Shown here: piece after piece, positions 11,650-51,400 of the stretch | Layout: each line of letters starts with the position of its first letter | Position numbering within the stretch: position 1 is the stretch's first letter | Virus record (IMG/VR): IMGVR_UViG_3300013383_000004 | Span: 32,756-96,755 of that record | DNA from: a virus | Taxonomy: Duplodnaviria > Caudoviricetes | DNA length: 64,000 nucleotides | Reading direction: 5' to 3' (one strand) | Notes under the pieces: model-generated | What the model saw: the letters and a program-made list of their open reading frames with translations, nothing else | Told to the model about the DNA's origin: nothing | Database searches by the model: none | Program-made: the position numbers and the translations under genes

Positions 11650-12792
11650 ATGGAAGGTTTATCATTGGATAATATTATGACTGGGGATGAGGCTGCTGCT
11701 TTGTTTGACCCAGAATCTAATCAAGAAAAAAAGGAGGAAAAACCTCTTGATAATTTTGATGATAGTAAAGAAGAAAAGAAAGAAACTACTGAGGTTGTTG
11801 ACGTAGATAACCTATTTACAGAAAAACCAGAGAGCGTAGGTAGTGAAGAAGATAATAAGGGTAAGGAAGGCACCTCTTCTAAAGAGGATACTTCTCCCAA
11901 CTTCTACTCTTCCATTGCCAAAGCCTTTGTAGAAGATGGTGTCTTCCAAGACCTTAATGATGAGGAACTTTCTAAGGTTACTGATGCCGAGTCTTTTAGA
12001 AACATGATTGAGCAAACTATTCAATCTCAACTTGATGAAAGACAAAAGAGAGTTGATGAGGCTCTTAATGTAGGCATTGAACCTACTCAAGTTCAAAGAT
12101 TTGAGAATAGCATGAAAATACTTAATAATATTACAGAAGATGCTATTGCAGAAGAAGGAGAGAAAGGTGAAAATCTTAGAAAGAATATTATTTATGAGGA
12201 TTATATCCAAAGAGGTTTCAGTAAAGAGAGAGCTATAAAGGCTGTTGAAAGGTCTATAGCTGCTGGAACTGACATAGAAGATGCTAAAGAATCATTGCAA
12301 AGTTGTAAAGAACAAATATCAAAATCTTATAATGATGCAATAAAAGAAGCAAAGGAAGAGAAAGCAAGAGAAGATGAAGAATTAAAAGAACAAGCAGAAG
12401 CTCTGAAGAAATCCATTCTTTCTGATAAAAAACCTTTTGGAGAATTAGATTTAGATAAAAAAACTAGACAGAGAGTTTTTGATGCTATTTCTAAACCAGT
12501 ATTTACTGATCCTAAAACAGGTGAAAGGTATACTGCAATTCAAAAGTTTGAAGCTGATAATCACAATGATTTTATGAAATATGTAGGACTTACTTATGTA
12601 CTTACAGATGGATTTAAATCATTGGATGGCTTGGTTAAAGGCAAGGTTAAGAAAGAGATTGGTAAAGGACTAAGAGAGTTAGAGCATACTTTAAATAACA
12701 CTGCTAGAAACTCAGATGGTACACTTAAATTTACAAGTGGTGTAGGCACAGACCCAGAGTCTGCTTTTAGAAAATTTACACTTGATATTTAA
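11650..12792 (+). CDS. putative capsid scaffolding/assembly protein
   Basis: Acidic, helical 380-aa protein immediately upstream of MCP. Confidence 0.55.
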   Translation: MEGLSLDNIMTGDEAAALFDPESNQEKKEEKPLDNFDDSKEEKKETTEVVDVDNLFTEKPESVGSEEDNKGKEGTSSKEDTSPNFYSSIAKAFVEDGVFQDLNDEELSKVTDAESFRNMIEQTIQSQLDERQKRVDEALNVGIEPTQVQRFENSMKILNNITEDAIAEEGEKGENLRKNIIYEDYIQRGFSKERAIKAVERSIAAGTDIEDAKESLQSCKEQISKSYNDAIKEAKEEKAREDEELKEQAEALKKSILSDKKPFGELDLDKKTRQRVFDAISKPVFTDPKTGERYTAIQKFEADNHNDFMKYVGLTYVLTDGFKSLDGLVKGKVKKEIGKGLRELEHTLNNTARNSDGTLKFTSGVGTDPESAFRKFTLDI

Positions 12793-12817
12793 TTTTTAAT
12801 GTTTAATTTATTTATTT

Positions 12818-15800
12818 ATGGCTGGACAATTAGGTAAGTTTCAGATGGTTGGATTTGATGGTTGGAAAGGTTTGACAAAGATGAATCATTTGTCATCCAT
12901 TTTTCAAATGGCACCTCAGAAAGCCTCAAATCTAATGGTACAATTATTGGCAGCAAAGAGAGGTAAAACACTTGATACATTCCTTTCTCAATTTCCCGTT
13001 AAATCTTAGCGGCTTAATAAAGTAATTTATTAATGATAAGACATTAAATTGCTGGAAGTTCTTTAGAGCTTTTCTGCTAGTAAGTTATTTTTTAACATGG
13101 GCAAATATTATACAATTAAAGAGTATAAAGAGTACTTTACTACAAAGAATGGTAAGAAAGCTTTCATTACAAAAAATAGAGTAATGCTTAAGCGTTATAA
13201 AAAATTAAAGTATAAAAAAACAAATAGACTCTCTGTAGAAGATCAAGAAATAGAAATTCAAAGAGGCTTAAGAAAGATACTGTGGAAGTATTATATAGAA
13301 CATAAAAAGATTAAAACTATTAAGAGAGAAACAGGGTTTTTTTATAGTTATATTTTACAGATAGTTAAAGGCAAAAGATACCCAGAACAAGTTAATAAAT
13401 ATTTATTAGAAATAAAGAAAAGATTAGATAATCAGCAGCCAAACCTTTTATAGGGAGGTTCAACGACTATAATATGTCTATCCTACTTTTAGGATAATGG
13501 TATAGTCTGAACTGTATAGAGATATACAGGTAACATAGTGTAAGGAATTTGAAGATGATAATGAGTACTATTGGGATGTAGTAGGTTCTAGTAAAAAGAA
13601 CATTCCTCTTGTTGAGGCTAGAGATGAAGATGGTAATAAGGTAGAGGCAACATCTAGCCCTGTAGGTGCTGGCACTGCTCCTTTTTATCTTGTTTTTGCA
13701 GAGGATTATTTTGCTGATGGTGAAGTAATCTTTGGTAATCTTAATCAAGTTTATCCTTTTAGAATCCTTGGTAATGCAAGGATGGAGGGGACAAATGCTG
13801 TGTATAAGTGTGAGCTTATGGGTGGTAATACTACAGGATGTCCTGCTGATAGACTTCAAGCAGGTGAAAGATTCTCTGTAGGTTTTGCTCCTGTCGAAAA
13901 AGAATTAAGCCGTAGACAGACCTTGCGGCATATACTAGTAATAGTATATTAAAAATGGGCAAAATCGGTGAAACTCCTTAAATAATAAGGACAATACCGA
14001 GCTAACTTAAAAGTAATAGTTTTAAGTAGTGTAGAGAATAGAATTTGAAAATAAGATAATTGTAAAATGGAAGGGTTCATTTATAAAGTCACCAACAAGG
14101 TGAATGGAAAATCTTATATTGGTCAAACAAGAAATACAGTAGAATTTAGGTGGAGACAACACTATAAGGCCAAAGATAATAAGTATTTTCATAGAGCCAT
14201 ACAAAAATATGGTAAAGAGAACTTTGAAATTATAACATTAGAAAAATGTGAGGTAGGAAAACTTAATGATAGAGAAATCTTTTATATTAATAAATATGAT
14301 ACATTTAATAATGGATATAATTTAACCAAAGGTGGCTCTACTTACACTCCTAATAAAAAATGTCTGAATGGGTATATTGAAGTAGATGATAAATATGAAG
14401 AAATAAAAGGTATGTACTTAGCAGGATATAGTACAGCTAAAATATCATGTTTATACAATGTTGATAGACACTGCATTTCTAATATACTTAAAAGTCTAGG
14501 AGTTAAAGTAAGAAAAAGTGAAAAAATTAATATTAATGCACAAGAGTTTGAAGAACTTGTAAGCAAATATCAAACAGGCTATTCTTTAAAATCTTTAGCT
14601 AAAGAATATGGCTGTACAGATGTTGGTTTAAAAGAATATCTTCAAAAAAGAGGGATTGATATTAAAAAGAAATTTTCAATATTAAAAGATGAACCCAAAC
14701 AAAAAGAACTAATAAATGATTATTTAAAAGGTACTTTAAAGTTAAAAGAAATTCAACAAAAGTATCATTGTGAATATAGAACATTTTTAAAAGTTCTTTC
14801 CAATCATGGTATTAAACAAAGAGGTTGTAGTGGTAATTTTAAATTATCTGACAAAGATAGTTTAGAAATCATTAAACTTTTTAAAGAAGATAAAAAAGTC
14901 ATTGAATTAGCAAAACTTTATAATGTTGATAAATGTACTATATATAATCTTCTAAAAAGGTATCATGTTAATTATTAAAATATAATAATTCCACGAGTGT
15001 CCAAATCCTAATATTAAGTTAAGGGTTAATATTTATTCCGAACTATATGGTAACATATAGAACTATAGGATAAAGAGCCTATAGGATAACATCCGAGAAG
15101 GTCGGAGACATTAGATTTAGTACACCTGTTTCTATGAGAAATGAGTGGACTACAATCAGAATCCAGCATAAAGTTACAGGCTCAATGCTGGGTAAAAAAC
15201 TTGCGGTGGGTATTCCTATACTTGAGGAAACCACTGATGGAAATAAGGTAAGAAAAGTGGCAAACCTTTGGATGCACAATGTTGATTGGACTCTTGAACA
15301 GCAATGGGGTGATTACAAGAACATTGCTATGGCTTGGGGCACATCCAATAGAAATGCTAACGGTAGATTATTTGCCGCCTAATAAAGTAATTTATTAGTG
15401 TAAATTCTTAATATAATTTAAGAAGAAAAATTGGGAAAAAACGGTGAAGTCCATTACCTTTGTATTAAAAAATAATATGGAAATTTGGAAAGATATAGAG
15501 GGATTTAGAGAACTTTATCAAGTTAGTAATTTAGGTAGAATTAGAAGAAAGGATAATCATAAAGTTTTAAAGCCTTTAATTTTAACAAAAGGCTATAAAG
15601 GAGTAAGATTATACTATACAAAGAAAGATGCTGTAACTAAAAAAATACATAGACTTGTAGCTAAATATTTCATTGGAAATCCACTAAATTTACCACAGGT
15701 AAATCATAAAGATGGAAATAAAAATAATAATAAAGCTATAAACTTAGAGTGGTGCAGTAATGAATATAATATGAATCATGCTATTACTAATGATTTAATA

Positions 15801-17739
15801 AAATTAGGAGAGGATAGAACTTCTTCTAAGTGTACAGAAGATTCTTTGCAATATATACAAAAATTAATAGATTGTAAATTTACAATTAAACAACTTAGTA
15901 TAGTCTATTGTATATCAAAGAATAGTATGAAAGATATTATAAGAAATAAATCTTACACTCATTTACATTTGAATATAAAATATAATAATCCTACTGAAAA
16001 AAGATTTAACCATAAAATTATTGATAAAGATTTATATAATAAATTGAATAATTCTCTAAAGGATAATACCGTGCTAAATACACTTATTAAAGAAGGGTAT
16101 ATAAGTGTACAGTGTAACGCATAGTAATTGAAATAATATTACCAAGAGTTCCCAAGTTCCTTTTTAGTAAAAGGAATAAAATATATGCTGAACTATTGAG
16201 ATAATAAATCAATAGAATTAAAGGATAAAAAGCCTTTAAGATAACATACTTGGAATATCTTAATTATGGCAAGTCAGGTGAAGTTATCAGAATGGGCGAT
16301 GGTTTGTTTGCCCAGATGGAAGTAGCTAATACTATGTACTACAATAACTTCTCGCTTAAGCTTCTTGAAGATGCTCTTTATGAGCTGTCAGCAGCTAAAC
16401 TTAATATGAATGAAAGAATCTTTGTTATTAAGACTGGTGAAAGAGGAGCTATTCAGTTCCACAAGGCTATCCTTAATACAGTGTCTGGTTGGACTCAGTT
16501 TGTACTCAATGGGGATGCTCTTAAGGTAGTAGAGAAAACACAGAGTAATCTCCATGTTAACTCTCTTGCTGCTGGCTTCCAATTTGTAGAGTACAGAGCA
16601 CCTAATGGTGTTAGAGTTAAGGTAGAAGTAGACTCATTTTATGATGATCCAGTACAAAATAAGATACAGCACCCACTTGGGGGTCCTGCAAGCTCTTATA
16701 GATATGACATCATGGATATTGGTTCTATGGATCAACCTAATATCTTTAAGTGCCAAATTAAGGGTATGCCTGAAATCAGAGGCTATGAGAGTGGCTTAGC
16801 TGCCTAAGGTCACTTTAAACAAGGTTAATTGCTGGAAACTCTAAAACTTAATACTTCAAACATTTAAATATGGAAGAACAATGGAAAGAAATCCCTTATA
16901 CTAAAGGATACTATATATCAAACTTTGGTAGGGTGAAAATTGAGAAATGCCATAAATATCCAAATGGTGTTATCAAAGATAACAATTCTGGATTTTATGA
17001 GGATAAGGACGGTTACTTTAAATTATCATATAGGATGATTAATGGTAAAAGCACAGCTTCTTTTATACATAGATTAGTAGCTCAAGCTTTTATAGGCAAT
17101 CCAGATAATAAGAAGATTGTTAATCATATAGATAGTAATAGAAAAAATAATAAAGTAACAAACTTAGAATGGTGTACTGATAAAGAAAATGTATATCATG
17201 CCTTTATTAAAGGTAATAGAAAACATTGTTTAGATGTTCCTAAACAATCTAAATTAACACCTTATCAAATATCTCAAATAAATAATCTGAGACAATATTA
17301 TTCTTTAAGAAAGATTGCAGATTTGTATAATATAAGTTATACTTCAATGAAGAATGTAGTAATTAGATTAAAAAGATTAAGTCATGACAATCAGCAGCCA
17401 AGCATCTATGGTGAAAGCTACCACATAGATGAAGGTTCAACGACTATCCCTTATGGGAGTATACTACAAGCTAATGGTAGTGGAAATGCCTTGCCCACTA
17501 AATAGTGGTGAAGATATAGTCTAAACACTAGAGGAAACCTAGTGGAGTTAAACTCAATATAGAAGTTGCGTTCTATATAAAAATGTAATGTTAGGAATCC
17601 TTTCACTGGAGAGGTAAATATCCAGTATATGTCTCATGATGAGGATAGTGCAACAATTCATAAAATGGCAACATTTGGTATTTGTGTATTAGACCCAACG
17701 AGAACAATGTCATTAATTCCTGCTATTTTACAGGGTTAA
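12818..17739 (+). CDS. major capsid protein, spliced from 5 exons (12818-12999, 13541-13913, 15098-15364, 16253-16796, 17591-17739); 504 aa
   Basis: Exons sum to 1515 nt (504 codons + stop) and join as FPV|KEFEDD, ELSR|KVGD, NANG|EYLNYG, ESGF|RNPFTG, ending PTRTMSLIPAILQG*; matches the crAss-type MCP sequence as I recall it. Confidence 0.93.
13000..13540 (+). mobile_element. group I intron 1 in MCP (541 nt)
   Basis: P1 CCGU|UAA-AUC-UUAGCGG with U.G pair; P10 CUUA/UAAG; core AAUUGCUGGAA, AAUCAGCAGCC, GUUCAACGACUA, UAUAGUCU; ends in G13540. Confidence 0.92.
13097..13453 (+). CDS. intron-encoded basic HTH-like protein with no recognisable nuclease motif
   Basis: 118 aa, K-rich; HTH-like segment IKTIKRETGFFYSYILQIVKGKRY; no HNH, GIY-YIG or LAGLIDADG motif seen. 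Confidence 0.6.
   Translation: MGKYYTIKEYKEYFTTKNGKKAFITKNRVMLKRYKKLKYKKTNRLSVEDQEIEIQRGLRKILWKYYIEHKKIKTIKRETGFFYSYILQIVKGKRYPEQVNKYLLEIKKRLDNQQPNLL
13914..15097 (+). mobile_element. group I intron 2 in MCP (1184 nt)
   Basis: P1 GCCGU|A...UGCGGC; P10 GACCUU/AAGGUC; P4 AAUCGGUGAA/AAUACCGAG; P7 GAGAAUA/UAUUCC; ends in G15097. Confidence 0.9.
14067..14978 (+). CDS. GIY-YIG homing endonuclease with repeated HTH domains
   Basis: GFIYKVTNKVNGKSYIGQT, R.RQH, FHRAIQKYG, ERE..YI, GYNLT.GG; four HTH-like repeats in the C-terminal part. Confidence 0.92.
   Translation: MEGFIYKVTNKVNGKSYIGQTRNTVEFRWRQHYKAKDNKYFHRAIQKYGKENFEIITLEKCEVGKLNDREIFYINKYDTFNNGYNLTKGGSTYTPNKKCLNGYIEVDDKYEEIKGMYLAGYSTAKISCLYNVDRHCISNILKSLGVKVRKSEKININAQEFEELVSKYQTGYSLKSLAKEYGCTDVGLKEYLQKRGIDIKKKFSILKDEPKQKELINDYLKGTLKLKEIQQKYHCEYRTFLKVLSNHGIKQRGCSGNFKLSDKDSLEIIKLFKEDKKVIELAKLYNVDKCTIYNLLKRYHVNY
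15431..15462 (+). promoter_or_regulatory. candidate sigmaA-type promoter inside intron 3 driving the HNH gene
   Basis: TTG (15431-33), 21-nt spacer, TACCTTTG (15455-62), ending 14 nt before ATG 15477. Confidence 0.55.
15477..16124 (+). CDS. NUMOD4-HNH homing endonuclease
   Basis: MEIWKDIEG...YQVSNLGRIR (NUMOD4); IHRLVA..F...VNHKDGNKNNN...NLEWC (HNH); likely start ATG 15477. Confidence 0.92.
   Translation: MEIWKDIEGFRELYQVSNLGRIRRKDNHKVLKPLILTKGYKGVRLYYTKKDAVTKKIHRLVAKYFIGNPLNLPQVNHKDGNKNNNKAINLEWCSNEYNMNHAITNDLIKLGEDRTSSKCTEDSLQYIQKLIDCKFTIKQLSIVYCISKNSMKDIIRNKSYTHLHLNIKYNNPTEKRFNHKIIDKDLYNKLNNSLKDNTVLNTLIKEGYISVQCNA
16797..17590 (+). mobile_element. group I intron 4 in MCP (794 nt)
   Basis: P1 AGUGGCU|...GGUCACU; P10 CCUAA/UUAGG; core AAUUGCUGGAA, AAUCAGCAGCC, GGUUCAACGACUA, AAGAUAUAGUCU; ends in G17590. 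Confidence 0.92.
16870..17505 (+). CDS. NUMOD4-HNH homing endonuclease
   Basis: EEQWKEIP...YYISNFGRVK; IHRLVAQAF...VNHIDSNRKNNKVTNLEWCT..EN..HA; C-terminal HTH. Confidence 0.92.
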   Translation: MEEQWKEIPYTKGYYISNFGRVKIEKCHKYPNGVIKDNNSGFYEDKDGYFKLSYRMINGKSTASFIHRLVAQAFIGNPDNKKIVNHIDSNRKNNKVTNLEWCTDKENVYHAFIKGNRKHCLDVPKQSKLTPYQISQINNLRQYYSLRKIADLYNISYTSMKNVVIRLKRLSHDNQQPSIYGESYHIDEGSTTIPYGSILQANGSGNALPTK

Positions 17740-17743
17740 TATA

Positions 17744-17779
17744 AAAGGGGGAGGTATTCTCCTCTCCCTTTCATTTTTT
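17744..17779 (+). terminator. intrinsic terminator after MCP
   Basis: AAAGGGGGAGG-TATTCT-CCTCTCCCTTT hairpin followed by a T-rich tract. Confidence 0.7.
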
Positions 17780-17802
17780 AATTTTATTGGAGAGGTATAA
17801 AG

Positions 17803-18786
17803 ATGGCAACAGAAACTAAAATTATAGTAGATGATACTATGGAAGAGAATATGATTGAAAAACCTATTGAGAAGTCTAAATCCAAGCAAAGAGTTAAAGC
17901 AAAGGAAAAAATAGAAGAACAAGGGCTTATAAACTGTCTTAGAAATGAAAAAGTTATTATAAGACATATCCCAAGACAAAGTAGGATGGTAAGTAATCCA
18001 AAACATATTTTATATGGAGGTATGGCAGAAAATGCTAAAAGAACATTTGTAGTACCAAAACTTTCCTCTGGAAGATATGTTAATGTTCTTACGGATGCTG
18101 AGAAAGACTATCTTGAAGATATTATGGGTCTTGAAGTTAATGCAATGAGTATTTATAATAAGGTCAATAATTTTTGGGATGATAGTAATGAACAGGGTGT
18201 TTCTAAAGTAACATTAACTAAACAAGATAATTTTCTTAATCTTAGTGATCCTGAAGATTATATTAGATATAAAATACTTTTAGCTAATAAAGATTATATC
18301 GCACCTTCAATGAAGGAACTTGAAGATAATCCTAAAGCAACTTATCAATTTGTTATTATTTCTGAGGGAGACGAGACCAGGGCAGCTAAGAAGGGAATGA
18401 CTACTATTATGCAATGTTATACTTTGTATGGTAAACTTGAAGATGACGTAGATGCCCTTAGAGTAATTGTTGAAACTCTTACAGGTGTAACTATTCATCC
18501 TAATACAAAGAAAGATTTCCTTCAAACTAAAGTCAATGAGCTAATTCAGAGTAATAGTAAAATGTTCTTAAAAATAGCTTCTGATCCTCTACTTCAAACT
18601 AAAGTGCTTATTAAAAAGTCTATTGAAGCAGGATTAATTGCTCATAGGGGCAACCAGTATTATATTAAAGAAGGAAATATTCCTATGTGTGATAATGGCG
18701 AGCCTACATTAAATGTAGCTTCTCAATGGCTCAATCAGCCAAAGAATCAAAATATTAAATTTAGTTTAGAAGCTAAACTTAAATAA
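17803..18786 (+). CDS. conserved crAss-like protein downstream of MCP
   Basis: 327-aa ORF in conserved syntenic position; function unknown. Confidence 0.6.
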   Translation: MATETKIIVDDTMEENMIEKPIEKSKSKQRVKAKEKIEEQGLINCLRNEKVIIRHIPRQSRMVSNPKHILYGGMAENAKRTFVVPKLSSGRYVNVLTDAEKDYLEDIMGLEVNAMSIYNKVNNFWDDSNEQGVSKVTLTKQDNFLNLSDPEDYIRYKILLANKDYIAPSMKELEDNPKATYQFVIISEGDETRAAKKGMTTIMQCYTLYGKLEDDVDALRVIVETLTGVTIHPNTKKDFLQTKVNELIQSNSKMFLKIASDPLLQTKVLIKKSIEAGLIAHRGNQYYIKEGNIPMCDNGEPTLNVASQWLNQPKNQNIKFSLEAKLK

Positions 18787-30274: not shown

Positions 30275-33001
30275 ATGGCTTATAAAATTAATAAAGGAAA
30301 ATATAATAAATTATTAAGTTATAGAAATCGCTATTATAATTTAGGAGGTGATATTAATGAACTACCTCTGTTTTATCAATATGCGGATTCTAATGATAGT
30401 TTTATAGGAAATCCTATCTCTAATATATATCAAGGAGATAGTGCTACAGATGCTTTAGTACAACAAAATATAGTTCCCTCACCTCCTCCTTTACAAAGAG
30501 TAGATATTCCTAAACAACCTAATAAAACTCTTCAATCCCTTGAAGATATGTTTAACTCAGGAGCTTTAAATAATGCTGCTACTGCATTAGGAAGTATGGC
30601 AGGCAGTGGTATAGCAGGGGGTTTAGAAAGTGGAGCAGGTAGTGTTTTTAGTAGCCTAGGTAATATTGCAAGTACTATCCCTGGACCTTGGGGTGCTATC
30701 GCAGGAGCAGGACTTAATGTTATAGGAGGCCTTACTAATAGAATGTTTGGCTCTAAATTGAATCAAGAAAATATTAATGCTACTAATTCTACTATAAACA
30801 GACTTAATAATTTTCAATCAAATGCCAATAGCTTTGATACTTTAGCGGATATTTGGGGAAGTACAGCTTTAGGTACTAATTTCTCTGATAGTTATATAGG
30901 CAAAGATGGATGGTTCTCAAATAAGGCAAAAAATAAAGCTAAACAATTAAGAGAAAGGATGAATCTATCTAATGCCTTTGCTGAAAACTCATTACAAAAT
31001 AATGCTGACAATCTTACAGAAACTACAATGAACAATCTAGAAGCTAGTTATGCTGCTCTTGGGGGTCTCTTGAATCAATATGCTAATGGTGGTGGAATAC
31101 ATATAGACCCCAGAAATAAAGGTAAGTTCAATGCCACTAAAGAGAGAACAGGAAAAACTACAGAAGAGCTTACACATAGTAAGAATCCACTTACAAAAAA
31201 GAGAGCTATATTTGCTCAGAATGCAGCAAAGTGGCACCATGCTTTTGGTGGTGACTTAAACACTGCTGGTGCAGACTTTCCAACAGGACTTACATTTATT
31301 AATGAAGGAGGCACACATGAAAGTAATCCCTATGAAGGTGTTCCTATGGGTGTAGCTCCTGATGGTAAACCTAATTTAGTAGAAGAAGGAGAAGTAGTAT
31401 ATGATGACTATGTGTTTAGTAATAGACTTACTGTTCCTGATGCTGTTAGGTCTAAATATAAATTAAAAGGAAATAAAGATTTAACTTTTGCTGATGCAGT
31501 TAAACAACTTTCTAAAGGTGTTTCAGAGAGACCTAATGACCCAATAAGTCAAGAAACCCTGCATGAGATAATGTCTGACTTAGCACAAACACAAGAGGAA
31601 GTTAGAGAAGCTCAAACTGTAATTAATAAATACTCACATGGTGGTAAATTAGGCACCCTTCATGATGGAAAAGAAGCAGGATGGCAAGTACTAAATATGG
31701 ATAATAAGACTCCTAATATTACCTTTGGGGTAGAAGGCTTTAATCCTTATGACTCTCAAGGAAATATTGATTGGGATATAATGTATCGGAATGACAGCCC
31801 TTACATGAAAAGAAGGCAATATGTTATAGATAATTGGAATGATCCTAAAGTACAGCAATGGCTTCCTGAATATGTAAAGGAGATAAATAAATATAATGAA
31901 GGTAGAACAGGCTATACTCCAATGAAAGTATCTGACATTACACCTAAAGTATTTAGAGATAGAACTTTTGATAAGTCATGGGGAGCTATGCACGCCGGTA
32001 TTCTTAATGCAGAAGACGTTACTTTAAATAAAGCTAATAGATATTTTTTAAGAGGAAAAGATGCTCAAGGTAATCCTATTGTTACTCCATTAAATGCAAT
32101 TCCTTGGGAAGGATTAAATGATAAAGGTTTAACTTTTGAGCAAGCTTATCCTAACTATTCTTTTGTAGGCAAGCAGGAGAGGCCTAAAGAGGGTGATACT
32201 ATTTACACTGACTACTATTATGATGAAAATAAAAAGGAGAATAAAGAAAAAGAAAAACTTGACTTAGGAACTTCTGATGAAAGACTTAGGTATGCTCCTG
32301 TAGTAGGACTAGGATTAGCAAGTTTAAGTGATGCACTAGGATTGTCTAATAACCCTGATTATAATGAAGCATCAATGATAGAAGCTGCTACAAGAGGAGG
32401 CTCTTATATGCCTGTATCATGGAATCCTATTGGCAATAAACTTACTTATAGACCATTTGACAGAGACTATTATACCAATAAACTTAATGCAGAGTCTGGT
32501 GCTACAAGAAGAGCTTTAGCTAATCAAAGTGGTGGTAATAGTGGTAGAGCCATGGCAGGTATTCTTGCTGCTGATTACAATGCTCAGGATAAGTTAGGTG
32601 ATCTGTTCAGAAAGTCTGAGGAATATAATTTAGAACAAAGACAAAAAGTAGAGGACTTTAACAGAGCTACTAACCAAGCTAATTCTCAAGGTATGTTACA
32701 AGCTGATATGGCAAATCAACAAGCATATAATAGTACTAGAGATTTTAATCTTAGAGGTATAATGGCTGCTGCTGAGATGAGACAAAAAGCCAGACTTGCA
32801 GCAGAACAGGCTAAATCAGCTAATTTAAGTGGATTATTACAAGCACTTGGTGATATTGGCTATGAAAATAAGGGCATGAACATGATAAGAAGGCTTGCTG
32901 AAGCAGGTGTTATTGGAGGAATGTCAGAGGGTCATCCAATGTTTAATCTTTACACTACTCCAGCAAAAAATAAATCAAAGAAAAATTTAACAAAGAAATA
33001 A
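30275..33001 (+). CDS. virion cargo (ejection) protein 1-like
   Basis: G/A-rich hydrophobic segment, GGTHE.NP.EGV...NLVEEGEV motif, repeated aromatic-xx-GG motifs; follows muzzle. Confidence 0.7.
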   Translation: MAYKINKGKYNKLLSYRNRYYNLGGDINELPLFYQYADSNDSFIGNPISNIYQGDSATDALVQQNIVPSPPPLQRVDIPKQPNKTLQSLEDMFNSGALNNAATALGSMAGSGIAGGLESGAGSVFSSLGNIASTIPGPWGAIAGAGLNVIGGLTNRMFGSKLNQENINATNSTINRLNNFQSNANSFDTLADIWGSTALGTNFSDSYIGKDGWFSNKAKNKAKQLRERMNLSNAFAENSLQNNADNLTETTMNNLEASYAALGGLLNQYANGGGIHIDPRNKGKFNATKERTGKTTEELTHSKNPLTKKRAIFAQNAAKWHHAFGGDLNTAGADFPTGLTFINEGGTHESNPYEGVPMGVAPDGKPNLVEEGEVVYDDYVFSNRLTVPDAVRSKYKLKGNKDLTFADAVKQLSKGVSERPNDPISQETLHEIMSDLAQTQEEVREAQTVINKYSHGGKLGTLHDGKEAGWQVLNMDNKTPNITFGVEGFNPYDSQGNIDWDIMYRNDSPYMKRRQYVIDNWNDPKVQQWLPEYVKEINKYNEGRTGYTPMKVSDITPKVFRDRTFDKSWGAMHAGILNAEDVTLNKANRYFLRGKDAQGNPIVTPLNAIPWEGLNDKGLTFEQAYPNYSFVGKQERPKEGDTIYTDYYYDENKKENKEKEKLDLGTSDERLRYAPVVGLGLASLSDALGLSNNPDYNEASMIEAATRGGSYMPVSWNPIGNKLTYRPFDRDYYTNKLNAESGATRRALANQSGGNSGRAMAGILAADYNAQDKLGDLFRKSEEYNLEQRQKVEDFNRATNQANSQGMLQADMANQQAYNSTRDFNLRGIMAAAEMRQKARLAAEQAKSANLSGLLQALGDIGYENKGMNMIRRLAEAGVIGGMSEGHPMFNLYTTPAKNKSKKNLTKK

Positions 33002-45455: not shown

Positions 45456-48400
45456 TTAACAAAACTTTTTATATTCTTTATTTATTAACTCTTCATTAAA
45501 TTTAATACCCAAATCATTAAGTCTTTTCTTCATAAAATTTTTGACTTGTGATTCATAAGCTTTTTTATCACTTTCACTTTTATTCTTATAGTTTTGAATA
45601 GTTTTTTCAGCATCTTCATAAGTTCTACCATTCATCATGTAAATTCTATGTAGTAAATCTATCTGTTCTTGATTACTCATAGTAGAATTATCTGACTTTG
45701 CCTCTTCATTAACCAAAGAATTTTGAACTTCTGATTCTGTATTATCTTCTAATGTCTTAGTAGTAATTTCAAGAGGTTTCTTTATATCATTAGTACTAAT
45801 TTCTAGATAATCATGATTACTTCCCAAAGGACTAATTTCTTTGTATTCAATAGCATTATCTTTTAACAAGACTTGTTGATACAGTTTATAACCATCTTTT
45901 ACTTTCATTTTAAAATAAGGGGTATTCTGTAATTCTGTCACTTCCCCTTCTTTATAAACCTCAAAATTTCCATTTTCAAGTTTTGCCATTGTAGCCTTTT
46001 TTATAGGAACAAGTTTATTATTATCCCAGTTATTCCTAATAAACTGGTCCATAACTACTTCTGGAGAAGTGGTAGGAAGTACTCTAAAAGTATCAGTATA
46101 CCCGTCAATTCTTTCTTTAACGTATACAGGAACTAAGCTCATAAAGGATTTAGGAGAAAATCCTAATCCTGCCCTAAAGAAACAATATTTAAAGAGTTGC
46201 TTAGACAGCTCTGGATTCTCCTTATGTAAGTCAATCCAAGCGTTACCTAGTTTCTCTTTTTGAGCAGTATCAAGACCTGTAATTTCTATTTGAAGGGTTG
46301 CTCTTCCTGTCTTATCAGTACCATACTTAATAGATTGAATTAAGAAATTATCTTTATATTTTTTCTTATAGTCTTTCTTCATAAATTCTATAGGAAATTC
46401 TGAAATAGTTCTACTTAATTCCTTAGCATCTATTACATTTCCTGCAACAGCTAAATAAGACTGGTAAAAATCACTTAGACTACTAAGAATTTTTCTATCA
46501 TTAAGTATAGTGTTACCTAAAGGGGTTTCTCCAATATAATCAATAATATTCCTAAATCCTGTACTGTTAGCAGGCATATTACTAAATATTTCTCTAGCTA
46601 ATCCTAAAGTTCTATTAAATTGTTTTAATATAGGATGAGCATTAAAAATATCCATAATGCTAACTTCTTCTCCATAAGAATCAAGAATATTACTTTCTGA
46701 AGAGAGTTTATTTAACTTATATTCAGTAATGAGATTATCAACAATTAATGGGCCTACAGCACTACTAATAGAATTAAATCTAGTAGCAAAAGTAGGCATT
46801 CTCATGGCATCTGCTAATCTTTGAAAATTTCTAAATGCTTTAAGAGTTTTATACTCAATCCTTACATCATCAGATTTTAAGCCTTCAATTAATTGTTCTT
46901 TGGTTAAACCTTCCTCATTTAATACACTGTCTTCATTAATATCATGCTCTTTTTCTATTTCATTAATTCTTTCTTCTATCACCTTACTTAGAGAAGTAAA
47001 TCCTGTAATATTCTCACTACTAAATCTTTTAAGAATATCAGATACAGCTCTTTGAGATAAGAAAAGTGCAGCATCATCAAAAGGCATACCCATTCTTATA
47101 AGAGTATTAAGTATATTAGCAGTACTACTATTAATGTTCATTAAATTAAGTACAGGATCTTTAACAGCATCAGCAGCACTAGCAACTAAACTACCAAGCA
47201 CTTTACCTATAGATTGCCCTGTACTGTCTATCCTACCATCAATACTCATATTACTACCAAAGGTCATTCCTGCTACAGTAAATGGTTTTTCAATCATGCA
47301 AGCATTATCTACATTTACCATATAACCTTCATTTTCTATAACAGCATGAGCAATTCTATTAACTGCAAATATACCAATAAGAGAGCTGGCTGCACTGTTT
47401 TGTTTGTAAAACTGTACATGAGTATCTATGAACATAAGATTTTTATTTTTATTGCTTAAATCTTTCAGTTCATCAGTTGACATCTTACTTAATTCCTCGT
47501 AACTTTTATCTGTAGTTTTATATGCAGTTACAAGATAACCCATTCTTTTTTGAGGTTCAAAGCCTCCAGGATTTAGCATCTCAGCACAACTAGTTTCATG
47601 TGTTAATACTTCATAGGTCATGTCAACAATCTTATTGTTTCTATATATCCTTCCTTCTGTAGGCTTATTTACAGTAAAAGCATTTTGAATATATAATTTA
47701 AGAAGTCTATCATATGCACTACTAGGCATTGACATAAATCCTTGTGCAGCCCTTTGAGTCATGTATGTTTTATCAAAAGGATTATCAAGAAACATTTCAA
47801 TTAGTTCACTAAGTTGCTTTTTTGATTCATAACTTATTTCCTTACTTTGAGAGTTAGTTAAATCATCATAAAGTATCTTATGAAGGTTAGATCTACTGGT
47901 TTTTGTTCTAGAAATATCATAATCTTTTCTCATAAGATACATTTTGTCTACCATTTATACTTTATATTACTATAAAGATTAGACTATATCTTTACAAATA
48001 AATTGCAATGTGTATTTCCACATTTAAGTGTACTCACAGAGTTCTTCTTCTCCGTGTTAAATCATAAGTAATCTTATGTAACATAGATGGTACTTGTATT
48101 ACATAAGGTTTAACAATATCAATGAATTTTAATCCTTCTTTAGTACCACAACATAAAGAGTAACTATCTTCTTTTTTACCTTCATGGTACATATAAAAGT
48201 TTATATCCCACTGCTCTTTAAAGTAATTTATTATTGTTTGAACTTCTTGTTTAGGTTCACAAATACTTATTTTAATATAGAGACCACAAGGTCTTCCTTT
48301 GTCCTTTCTAATATTAATATGCCCATCATCCATATACCATATAGCTATCTCTCTAGCACTTAATCTATTTAAAAGCTTTCTATTACCAATTATCTTTTTT

Positions 48401-51400
48401 CCTTTATAAACTACTCTTCTAAGTACTTTAATAAAAGGAATTGTATTAAGCTGAGTATAATAAACAGGAACTCCTATATTAAATCCTTTAGTTTTTATAT
48501 AAGAATTAAGTCCATTATTTCTTATACCACAATTCTTTAATTGGTTAATTTTCCACTCTAGATAGTCTTTCTGTGCTTCACAATGAGCTATCTTGAATAC
48601 GTTGTTATTGCATATTGTTCCATCACCTAAAAGTAATCCAATTAATAAATTTCTACTTTCTTTGTTAAACTTTGTTTTCATAACGAGAATCCGTATGTTT
48701 AAATTATGATTTAATTAGTCGTTGAACCTTTTAGCATTTCAGCTAACTTGGCTGCTGATAACCCTTAGCATTACCTATTAGGGCTTCCCAGCAATTAACA
48801 CATTTTTACTTCAACATAGAATTTATCGAAATCACTACCTGTAAGCAATGTAATATCATTAGGAAGCATAATACCATCTCCTGCCTCTCTTGGCAAGAAT
48901 CCTACAATTTTCACAGGGGCCATTGAATACTTTGCTTCAGTAGGGATTCTATAACTAACCATCTTTAATAAGTCTGGATCAAGAGCTTCTATAGCTTCTA
49001 TACTAATATTACCATCTTTATCAGTGAATTGATTAAATAAATCATTAGTATAAATAGGAGCAAATGCTTCAAAGTAAGCAATACCTCCTTGATGTTCTTT
49101 TAAATATTCCTTATAAGATAGTGTGTTACTATTATTCTTTACCCCTTTATATTTAGCATTAAATTTATCAGATTGTGAAAGTTCTCTTTTAATAGGACTT
49201 TTCTCATACTCTTTTCTTGTTTTTAAGAGTCCTCCATTCTTATCTTTAAATCTAATATTAAGCTGTCTTGAAGTTCCAAAGTTAGTGACTTGTACAACAG
49301 GACCACCAGCTATTTCTTGTTTATTAACTCTGTTTTTAATTATAGAGTTGATAAGTTGTTCAATTCTCTTACTTTGAATTGGATCTCCAAGAGGTATTCT
49401 AAATCTTCCATCGGCATCAACAGAACAAGCCTGAAGCAAATCTATTCCATATCTAGGGCTAGATAGTATTTCTCTTTGTAGTATTTTACTTATAGCAATA
49501 TTTCTATCTTTAGCACTATAACTATCTAAATTAAGAGTTTCACTTAGTTCTGATATACTATTTTCAATATTATCAGCTATAGTTTGTTCATACTCTTTTT
49601 TAAACTCTTCAGCAGATAGTTTTTTACCTTCAACCTCATAAGTCACATCATTACCAAAACTATCTTTAGTAGCTAACTCAGAAGGTATAATATATCTAAT
49701 TTGAGAACCATGGGATTGCTCATGATCTTTAAAATGTTCCGGAACTTCTTGTTGTAAGCAATAGTCTTCAAAAGGTAATTCATGAACATAGGTTTGATTA
49801 TAATTTCCTGTTCTACTATTGATAATAGTTTCTTCGGTCTTGCCTGTTTCTGAATTAGTTGTTTGTATTGTTTTAGGAGATGTTTCATATAAACAAGCTT
49901 CTAATACAGCTTTTGCTTTAGCTTCCCCATTGGCATCATTAGCATACTTATTAATATTAATTCTACCCATCAAACCTGATTTTACAGTAGATTCAAATTG
50001 AACAGTATCAATACCATCTTTTTTGTAATTGCCATTCTCATCATAATGACTTTCTTCCATTACTTCGTAAATAGCTCTAAGAAGATTGGGCTTTCCTGTA
50101 TATTCATTTTGGAGAATAGCATCAGCCATTATAAGAAGGTATTCAGAATTTTTATTTTGCACTCCCATCTTTATAGTACTAAGAGGAGCATTAACAACAC
50201 CTGTTGGTTTTGATATTTGACTATATACAAAAGGCTTTAATGGTTGAAAAGCTATGCTTAAATCACTGTAGTTATAATTTCCTTTTCTTAGTTTTTGATA
50301 TACTTCTTCTGCTTTTTTATCCCACTTACCAAAGATAAAAGCCTTCTTTCTATAGGAAGTAGGACAAGAATATCCTTGTGCATCTGCTACATTTATATGT
50401 CTAAATGCTCCATCTTTTCCTACAAGGGATTCCTTTAGTACTCTATATCCAGCTTTCTCTGACTCAGGAGCTTCTGCTATCTTTCTATCAAAAACAATAG
50501 ATACATTATCTATAATGTTGGAAACAAAGTTATCCCAATCTTTAAGATAACAAGTTCTTTCTTTTCCATCAGAAACCCTTCTCCCCTCATAGTCTACAGC
50601 TTCTACATTACCTCTGATACCGGGAGCATGAATTTGAGCTAATCTTTTTTGTAAATCTTCAGCATCTTTATAAAAAGCAATGTCTGTTATAGTCATCTCC
50701 ATAATATTCATTGCAGCAAAAGTATCATTCCATACAAAATTCTCAAGATTAGCTATGATCTCTTCTTCTGTTTTACCTATGTCTGTTATCTCTTTTACTC
50801 CTTCTATAAGACCAGAATCTACCCATTCTTTTACTATTTTAGAGGCTCTATTGTCCATAGCTTCAAATATAGCTTCATTAGCAAGGGAGTACAATCTATT
50901 TTCATCTACTTCTTTTCCATGAATTTTATCACTGATAAGTTTTCCTAATTCACTGTTTTTATGATCTCCTATAAGATAATCATTCATAAAATCAAGGAAA
51001 CAGAATTTTCTTCCATTAGAATCAAAATTCTTTATAAACCTAGGATCTTTTTTATCAAGGTTTCTCATTAAAACAGTTTGGATTCTACTTAGTTCTTGGT
51101 TAAATATATCCATTAAACCATTAGTAATAGTTTCTTTATAATTAGACCCCCTTTCACTATAGAATCTTATAAATTCAGAAGACGGCTTATTAGACATCAT
51201 AGGCACTCTAAACCATGCTGGGACTCTTGATTGTTTACTATTAGCACTTTCTGAGAAATATTCTGTTAATATAGAAAGTGTGTATTCCATATCATTCATA
51301 TTTCTCATATAGTTATGCTGATTGAAATTAAGTTGAACTTTATGCTTGAATACTTCTCTAGCTTTACTGTCTGTAGCTAAAGTTCTGAGCCAGCTGTTTC

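Follow-up and report, generated by a model that had tools for sequence, protein, structure and literature searches.

Four group I introns very probably split the major capsid protein gene of a Steigviridae phage

The major capsid protein gene of a crAss-like gut phage is very probably split by four functional group I introns. The gene lies within a 64,000-nucleotide stretch of DNA, referred to here as the window (positions 32,756 to 96,755 of IMG/VR virus record IMGVR_UViG_3300013383_000004). The phage belongs to the family Steigviridae and is related to IAS virus and crAss001; its genome (96,755 bp) has terminal repeats and is rated 100% complete. The sequence itself shows how the exons are arranged, how the ribozymes fold and which endonuclease domains are encoded. 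The four-intron arrangement is near the top of the known range.

Capsid exons and their joined product

Five exons (Table 1) were joined by script to give 1515 nt, encoding 504 aa and a stop codon. The joined protein aligned with its uninterrupted counterpart, the major head protein of IAS virus (NC_049978), from residues 1-504 to 1-504, with 0 gaps and 92.7% identity, and each exon aligned end to end with the IAS virus gene at the DNA level. The pieces encoded by exons 1-4 matched PF23898 (Crass_capsid, the Crassvirales major capsid protein) in consecutive profile order; this profile scan covered exons 1-4, and exon 5 was placed by DNA alignment to the IAS virus gene. Both the profile and the end-to-end match to an uninterrupted orthologue identify the joined product as a Crassvirales major capsid protein. 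A preliminary description of the window had proposed these five exons, with U|...G| junctions supported by P1 and P10 guide pairing, and an intact 504-aa product that should align with an intron-less crAss-like capsid protein along its whole length; the gap-free alignment bears this out. Its figure of 3407 intronic nucleotides out of 4922 was likewise reproduced by the sum of the introns (541, 1184, 888 and 794 nt).

The joined frame contains no internal stop, and its ratio of nonsynonymous to synonymous substitution rates (dN/dS) against IAS virus and cr116_1 was 0.07 at a dS of ~0.75, indicating strong purifying selection. Read-through of the 5' junctions reached an in-frame stop after 3, 12, 5 and 3 codons in introns 1-4, respectively, in keeping with the early stops described previously. 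A protein made from all five exons would require removal of all four inserts before translation, and the sequence-level tests support this part of the preliminary description too.

Splice junctions and guide pairing

Junction positions were fixed to within 0-3 nt (equivalent shifts), and at all four an exon-final T and an intron-final G were possible. The P1 pairings of introns 1-4 were CCGU/GCGG, GCCGU/GCGGC, CGGU/GCCG and GUGGCU/GGUCAC. P1 extended over 4-9 bp across the four introns and always placed a U.G wobble at the cut, as expected for the 5' splice site of a group I intron. P10 comprised 4, 6, 4 and 5 bp in introns 1-4, and its strand lay directly 5' of the P1 strand within the guide sequence. 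Every intron thus combined a terminal (omega) G with a P10 pairing to its 3' exon. When combined P1 and P10 pairing at the real junctions was compared with that at decoy exon positions, the fractions of decoys reaching the real value were 0.029, 0.0035, 0.066 and <0.0005 for introns 1-4.

P1 also co-varied with the exon between orthologous introns, from CCGU/GCGG to CUGU/GCAG at site aa61 and from GCGGU/GCCGC to GCUGU/GCAGC at site aa148. A protein-guided junction search found no T...G boundaries at site aa456 in the IMG/VR loci L008, L012, L068 and L078, and these were left out of the P1 comparison.

Introns 1 and 2 have a common P1 target, CCGU. The guide sequence and P2 start of intron 1 (GCGGCUUAAU, 13009-13018) are also fully complementary, over 10 nt, to the 3' end of exon 2 (13904-13913). 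These two features could allow exon 2 skipping or reverse splicing between sites, although the match may be chance.

Intron cores

The four introns fall into a canonical pair (introns 1 and 4) and a divergent pair (introns 2 and 3); their helices were verified base by base (Table 1). Introns 1 and 4 carry textbook P4, P4'/P6, R (GUUCAACGACUA) and S (AUAGUC) elements. Infernal was run on the 3' intron parts alone, treated as 5'-truncated, against the Rfam group I model RF00028, for which the curated gathering cut-off is 50 bits. This gave a match for intron 1 at 13418-13529 (44.8 bits, E 7.5e-11; 39.1 bits in the whole-genome search) and for intron 4 at 17372-17544 (39.4 bits, E 5.5e-9; 37.5 bits in the whole-genome search). 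Introns orthologous to intron 1 were found at its site in loci L002, L021 and L026, with a compensatory P1 change. An intron 4 orthologue without an open reading frame (ORF) occupies the same site in cr116_1 (298 nt) and scored 71-73 bits (up to 72.9) on RF00028; a second ORF-less copy, in L008, scored 69.7 bits. Intron 4 corresponds to the cr116_1 intron (89-95% identity on both flanks) with an HNH gene added in the P5a loop.

Introns 2 and 3 share a core with P4 CGGUGAA and P4' AUAAUACCGNGCUAA, and with R and S shifted relative to the canonical elements. A pattern scan for their P4-P5-P4' signature returned 24 loci in IMG/VR, 8 of them compact. Eight compact, independent ORF-less relatives were aligned, with the P7 pseudoknot added by hand. 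In the resulting fold, P3 encloses P4-P5-P6, a hairpin lies between P7 and P3', and P9 and P9.1 follow. Of the cells in this alignment, 99.3% were paired, compared with 31-43% in controls in which the partners were slid. Compensatory changes occurred in 29 of the 53 pairs, the P3/P7 pseudoknot included. Three of the six P7 pairs co-varied, and the G-C pair adjoining the bulged base was invariant in 8/8 sequences. Covariation in the family supports P3, P4-P6, P7, P7.x, P9 and P9.1, and the P3-P9 core with its P3/P7 pseudoknot and P7 G-C pair was found, P5 of intron 3 excepted. Over the four introns and an ORF-less relative at another capsid site (L022:4241-4568), the P7 series reads GACUA/UAGUC, GAAUA/UAUUC, GCAUA/UAUGC and GAGUA/UACUC.

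The intron 2/3 family was then modelled from this alignment as two covariance models, one each for the 5' and 3' domains. Intron 2 was matched at 13955-14046 (70.8 bits, E 2e-16) and 14984-15093 (87.7 bits, E 2e-13). In intron 3 the 3'-domain model matched 16135-16248 (102.5 bits, E 4e-16) and the 5'-domain model 16033-16129 (31.6 bits, E 6e-6). Matches within the 64-kb window were confined to introns 2 and 3, the fifth being marginal and again in intron 3 (13.2 bits, E 0.49), and the 3'-domain model found nothing beyond these two introns across the whole genome. The two models also matched the tape-measure intron of Lactobacillus phage JCL1032 (69.6 and 30.5 bits), which is annotated as a joined coding sequence and scores 59.4 bits on RF00028. 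This match bridges the divergent family to accepted group I introns.

The preliminary description had named an Infernal scan with group I models as a check, and its outcome was divided. RF00028 gave no match in the intact whole window at the gathering score, nor in 12700-17900 at E<=10, and none of the four introns reached the cut-off; the truncated matches of introns 1 and 4, both under 50 bits, are the positive part. In this comparison the cut-off was reached solely by the ORF-less intron 4 orthologues (69.7-72.9 bits) and the JCL1032 intron. Failure on the intact introns 1 and 4 is probably due to their internal ORFs (ORFs 350-900 nt), and that on introns 2 and 3 to sequence divergence.

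Family members related to introns 2 and 3 were also observed after codon ~17 (...HWKG|) of other crAss-like capsid genes (L084:9344-10009, minus strand; also L085, L090-L092 and L094), making the capsid N-terminus another intron hot spot. In L084 a second intron follows directly and is RF00028-positive at 88.9 bits.

Intron-encoded ORFs

The intron 2 ORF contains the GIY-YIG (I-TevI type) domain (PF01541, E 2.7e-10, profile positions 2-78 of 78), followed by the helix-turn-helix (HTH) domains HTH_28 and HTH_23 at aa 266-299. NUMOD4 followed by HNH_3, the arrangement of I-HmuI-type HNH enzymes, was present in the ORFs of introns 3 (Pfam E 9e-15 and 4e-7, respectively) and 4, whose products are 34% identical. 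The intron 1 ORF lacks HNH_3. Its product corresponds to residues 1-20 and 170-246 of the HNH enzyme (246 aa) encoded by the cr116_1 intron at the same site, in which HNH_3 spans aa 57-100. It is an in-frame deletion derivative without a nuclease, in which the first 20 aa and the HTH-bearing C terminus remain. The three kinds of ORF described previously reduce to two endonuclease families, GIY-YIG and HNH, and one HNH gene that has suffered a deletion.

The final ~50 codons of the intron 4 ORF (17358-17505) consist of ribozyme core sequence, from P5a' through P8, and the same stretch of sequence occurs, at 89% identity, in the ORF-less cr116_1 intron. The peptide motif DNQQP that ends both the intron 1 and intron 4 ORFs is the translated P4' strand. 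In ORF-less members of the intron 2/3 family, the P7.x loop retains an ATG and ~20 GIY-YIG codons (L022:4360-4440, MDGKIYKIIN...; L092 ~690-730, MNGFIYII...), footprints left by endonuclease gene deletion. Intact, deleted and ORF-less states together represent the expected cycle of gain, decay and loss of homing endonuclease genes.

Table 1. Coordinates of the capsid exons, the introns with their helices, and the intron-encoded ORFs
Feature	Position	Strand	Details
Capsid exon 1	12818-12999	+	ATG start; 182 nt; PF23898 positions 2-64; IAS virus capsid nt 1-182
Intron 1	13000-13540	+	Group I, canonical core; 541 nt; terminal G 13540
Intron 1 helices		+	P1 12996-12999/13009-13012; P10 13005-13008/13541-13544; P2 13014-13021/13026-13033 (GUAA loop); P3 13039-13044/13474-13479; P4 13050-13055/13432-13437; P7 13465-13469/13503-13507; P8 13480-13485/13490-13495; P9 13512-13518/13523-13529
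Intron 1 ORF	13097-13456	+	118 aa; internally deleted HNH homing endonuclease without nuclease domain; no Pfam match of its own
Capsid exon 2	13541-13913	+	373 nt; PF23898 positions 64-186; IAS nt 183-555
Intron 2	13914-15097	+	Divergent group I family; 1184 nt; terminal G 15097
Intron 2 helices		+	P1 13909-13913/13925-13929; P10 13919-13924/15098-15103; P2 13930-13937/13942-13949; P3 13956-13961/14998-15003; P4 13965-13970/13995-14000; P5 13974-13980/13986-13992; P7 14034-14040/15034-15039; P7.x 14041-14045/14987-14991 (ORF in P7.x loop); P9 15043-15049/15054-15060; P9.1 15063-15069/15078-15084
Intron 2 ORF	14067-14981	+	303 aa; GIY-YIG homing endonuclease, C-terminal HTH domains
Capsid exon 3	15098-15364	+	267 nt; PF23898 positions 199-270 (ORF part); IAS nt 556-822
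Intron 3	15365-16252	+	Divergent group I family; 888 nt; terminal G 16252
Intron 3 helices		+	P1 15361-15364/15374-15377; P10 15369-15372/16254-16257; P2 15379-15386/15391-15398; P2.1 15405-15411/15418-15424; P3 15432-15437/16149-16154; P4 15441-15446/16067-16072; P7 16117-16123/16184-16189; P7.x 16124-16128/16138-16142; P8 16157-16164/16169-16176; P9 16193-16199/16209-16215; P9.1 16218-16224/16233-16239
Intron 3 ORF	15444-16127	+	226 aa from GTG (215 aa from ATG at 15477); HNH homing endonuclease, I-HmuI type
Capsid exon 4	16253-16796	+	544 nt; PF23898 positions 269-449, E 1.5e-77; IAS nt 823-1366
Intron 4	16797-17590	+	Group I, canonical core with P7.1/P7.2 (IA2-like); 794 nt; terminal G 17590
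Intron 4 helices		+	P1 16791-16796/16808-16813; P10 16803-16807/17591-17595; P3 16820-16825/17488-17493; P4 16830-16835/17391-17396; P5a 16846-16852/17376-17382 (ORF begins in P5a loop); P7 17442-17446/17517-17521; P7.1 17447-17450/17455-17458; P7.2 17462-17467/17477-17482; P9 17526-17531/17539-17544; P9.2 17557-17564/17571-17578
Intron 4 ORF	16870-17508	+	211 aa; HNH homing endonuclease; HNH_3 E 2e-12, NUMOD4 E 6e-6
Capsid exon 5	17591-17739	+	149 nt including stop codon; IAS nt 1367-1515, 87% identity
Fifth group I intron	47952-48824	-	Canonical P4, P4'/P6 and R motifs near 48797, 48757 and 48727
Fifth intron ORF	48034-48681		215 aa; LAGLIDADG_2, E 8e-25

Proposed mechanism and alternative explanations

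The capsid gene would be transcribed as one ~4.9 kb precursor. Each internal guide sequence would form P1, with U.G at the cut, by pairing with the 4-9 nt that end the exon before the intron, and P10 by pairing with the 4-6 nt that open the exon after it. Free guanosine, bound in P7, would attack the 5' splice site, and the freed exon end would attack after the terminal G of the intron, joining the exons. Completion of all four reactions would produce the 1515-nt frame for the 504-aa capsid protein, and the in-frame stops 3-12 codons into the introns may keep ribosomes off the ribozyme cores. In mixed infections, the products of the intact endonuclease genes of introns 2, 3 and 4 (GIY-YIG, HNH and HNH) would cut intron-less capsid alleles, into which the intron would then be copied. 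Intron 1, encoding just a nuclease-less remnant, has probably lost the ability to move by itself. Catalysis, splicing in vivo and homing are predicted here from what is established for the group I intron family.

Homing is the ordinary and best-supported explanation for the presence of the introns. The suggestion in the preliminary description that they form an endonuclease arsenal against co-infecting relatives holds in so far as it amounts to ordinary intron homing and fits the patchy distribution of the introns, although of the four endonuclease genes the one in intron 1 is already defunct.

Several points weigh against four functional group I introns. P1 is just 4 bp in introns 1 and 3, and the ORF breaks up P5 of intron 3, which could not be drawn. 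In introns 3 and 4 the ORF extends into core helices, and its translation could interfere with folding. No intact intron reaches the Rfam gathering score, so group I membership is drawn from homology, covariation and matches to part of the model; aligned over the full length, the intron 2/3 family scores at best just 18.7 bits on RF00028 (E 0.014, for the ORF-less relative in L022).

The introns might be group I by descent and yet include at least one that no longer self-splices, so that capsid synthesis depends on a protein helper, either intron-encoded and maturase-like (e.g. the intron 1 HTH protein) or a host factor. We consider this unlikely. The retention in intron 1 of an open 118-aa frame, reduced to its two terminal parts, would fit such a role, as would the missing P5 of intron 3 and the overlap of ORFs with cores in introns 3 and 4; however, an open frame after an in-frame deletion can be chance, and the core helices are intact in all four introns, save that P5. 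Phage group I introns of this type, such as those of T4 and Twort, splice in vitro without proteins, and HNH and GIY-YIG proteins are not known to act as maturases; both points count against a helper. There is a slim chance that the introns are more than passengers. The intron 1 HTH protein may have been domesticated as a splicing helper or target-site repressor, or the four reactions may be exploited to delay or gate capsid synthesis; on a smaller scale, the intron 2/3 family may be a widespread gut-phage lineage missed by Rfam, leaving intron load under-counted. A timing or conditional checkpoint on capsid production, as raised in the preliminary description, is very unlikely to explain the four-intron arrangement. 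All four reactions are obligatory for capsid protein and four of the five introns in the genome lie in this gene, but close relatives make the same capsid protein with zero to three introns, mostly none. As these relatives manage without them, the introns are dispensable, and the sequence lends the checkpoint idea no support. No conserved regulatory element was seen, and a decaying endonuclease gene alongside ORF-less derivatives is the gain and loss pattern of selfish elements.

Since the unspliced gene is not translatable as it stands, the gene could be dead (a pseudogene, or part of a defective phage) or the inserts could be assembly artefacts; either is exceedingly improbable. The dN/dS of the joined frame and its freedom from internal stops led us to reject a pseudogene, and the genome is complete with terminal repeats. 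Orthologous introns at the same sites in independent assemblies speak against an assembly artefact. The location of endonuclease ORFs between capsid fragments would also be expected of inteins, group II introns or free-standing endonuclease genes splitting the capsid into separately translated pieces, for which there is practically no chance. Inteins were rejected as the inserts do not continue the capsid frame and run into stops at their start, and group II introns as no reverse transcriptase was found in the Pfam scan and group I cores are present. Separate translation was rejected because start codons are missing from the boundaries of exons 2-5 and the joined sequence follows the orthologue codon by codon.

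Distribution among related capsid loci

Related capsid loci (82 in total: 80 from IMG/VR, IAS virus and cr116_1) were compared. No intron was present in 68 of these, and the others carried one to three, at six sites: aa61, 124, 148, 187-189 (two neighbouring positions, 187/189) and 456. None of the 82 loci had an intron at aa274, the site of intron 3 in the window, and none had four. The nearest relatives, at 87% nucleotide identity over the capsid gene, had no introns. Introns at the same sites as in the window were found in the independent assemblies of cr116_1 (sites 1 and 4), L006 (site 4), L021 (sites 1 and 2) and L026 (site 1). The insertion sites lie at the 60th-88th percentile of conservation among 24-nt windows, only slightly higher than average and no firm indication either way.

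The Ser-Arg pair that closes exon 2 (13905-13913) is encoded by AGC CGT in the intron-bearing window and L021, as against TCA/TCT AGA in most intron-less alleles. This synonymous recoding beside intron 2 leaves P1 intact and is consistent with co-conversion. Three intron-less loci have an exon 2 flank identical to the intron type, suggesting that they once lost an intron or offer homing sites that are already in place.

Comparison with known systems

In the group I introns of phage T4, P7.1/P7.2 are present and an endonuclease ORF is looped from a peripheral helix; the 5' splice site is marked by U.G, the last base is G, and a stop comes early in the reading frame. These introns home into intron-less relatives in mixed infection. 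The window introns are likewise phage group I introns, with P7.1/P7.2 in intron 4 and with predicted homing. T4 differs in having one intron per gene, in nucleotide-metabolism genes, compared to four in one structural gene in the window. The T4 td, nrdB and nrdD(sunY) introns belong to subgroup IA2, with the endonucleases I-TevI, I-TevII and I-TevIII (reviewed in PMC3073962).

Among crAss-like phages, the Delta and Zeta groups have a high intron density (Yutin et al. 2021, PMC7886860), as repeated in a 2023 review. In the Zeta-group cMAG OLRF01000054 (PMC7886860, Fig 7a), four spacers likewise divide the major capsid gene into five pieces; group I-type endonuclease domains are encoded in three of these spacers, and the gene is in the standard code. 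This phage differs in belonging to the Zeta family-level group, with up to 14 introns per genome, and its introns were inferred from protein domains alone. The window phage belongs instead to the Steigviridae, has four of its five introns in one gene, and has its ribozyme folds and splice sites mapped. The uncultured phage cr116_1 (NC_055882) is closer, with exons 86.5% identical and orthologous introns at sites 1 and 4 (site-4 core 89-95% identical); its site-1 intron holds the full-length HNH gene that is the source of the 118-aa ORF. In contrast to the window, it has two introns only, and its site-4 copy has lost the ORF. Separate capsid fragments are annotated in its GenBank record and the introns are unmarked.

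The classical multi-intron phage structural gene is the tail tube gene orf142 of Staphylococcus phage Twort, for which three group I introns and exon skipping are described (Landthaler & Shub 1999, PMC22036, as cited in PMC11878797). It differs from the window gene in intron number (three versus four), in its Gram-positive host and in having self-splicing shown by experiment. Genes of Bastillevirinae have up to three introns; gut jumbo phages average 18.5 introns per genome, with splicing of 37 of 76 predicted introns backed by metatranscriptome reads. The 'extreme load' of the preliminary description was therefore overstated, given the published five-fragment crAss-like capsid gene (PMC7886860) and the three introns of Twort orf142. 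Four introns in a Steigviridae capsid gene are a new instance, not a new kind, because such arrangements have already been published.

For introns 2 and 3, the JCL1032 intron provides the closest parallel. Tourasse & Kolsto 2008 (PMC2504315) list it with relatives of the tape-measure protein and terminase introns of Bacillus cereus-group prophages, classed as IA1 or IA2, and report homologous cores whose P1 has become fitted to different sites and whose endonucleases are unrelated (GIY-YIG vs HNH). Introns 2 and 3 similarly have related cores at different sites with GIY-YIG and HNH enzymes, respectively. The JCL1032 and Bacillus cereus-group introns differ in occupying other host genes in other phage lineages, and R/S in introns 2 and 3 has drifted from GACUA/UAGUC to GAAUA/UAUUC and GCAUA/UAUGC, beyond RF00028 detection.

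The capsid intron arrangement reveals no new mechanism. It extends heavy intron colonisation of the capsid gene, published for the Delta and Zeta groups, to the Steigviridae. Any ORF caller would break this gene into mis-annotated fragments, as in the GenBank entry for cr116_1, and capsid-based phylogenies and primers for this lineage need the spliced form. With three predicted live endonucleases, one decayed, and intron-less relatives at 87% nucleotide identity, the locus offers a clean system for homing and competition among co-infecting gut phages.

Other features of the genome

Motif and endonuclease scans indicated five introns in the genome, four in the capsid gene and one LAGLIDADG intron in a giant polymerase gene. 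This fifth intron separates a 2092-aa ORF from an 832-aa ORF, probably as parts of one giant gene. At the gathering score Rfam found 0/5 introns, the fifth included, and two of those missed belong to a lineage scoring <20 bits at best on RF00028. Directly 3' of the capsid stop codon, a strong, G+C-rich hairpin is followed by a T run (window 17740-17785; AAAAGGGGGAGG...CCUCUCCCUUU UCAUUUUUU). It is likely an intrinsic terminator, and it caused several spurious weak Rfam matches.

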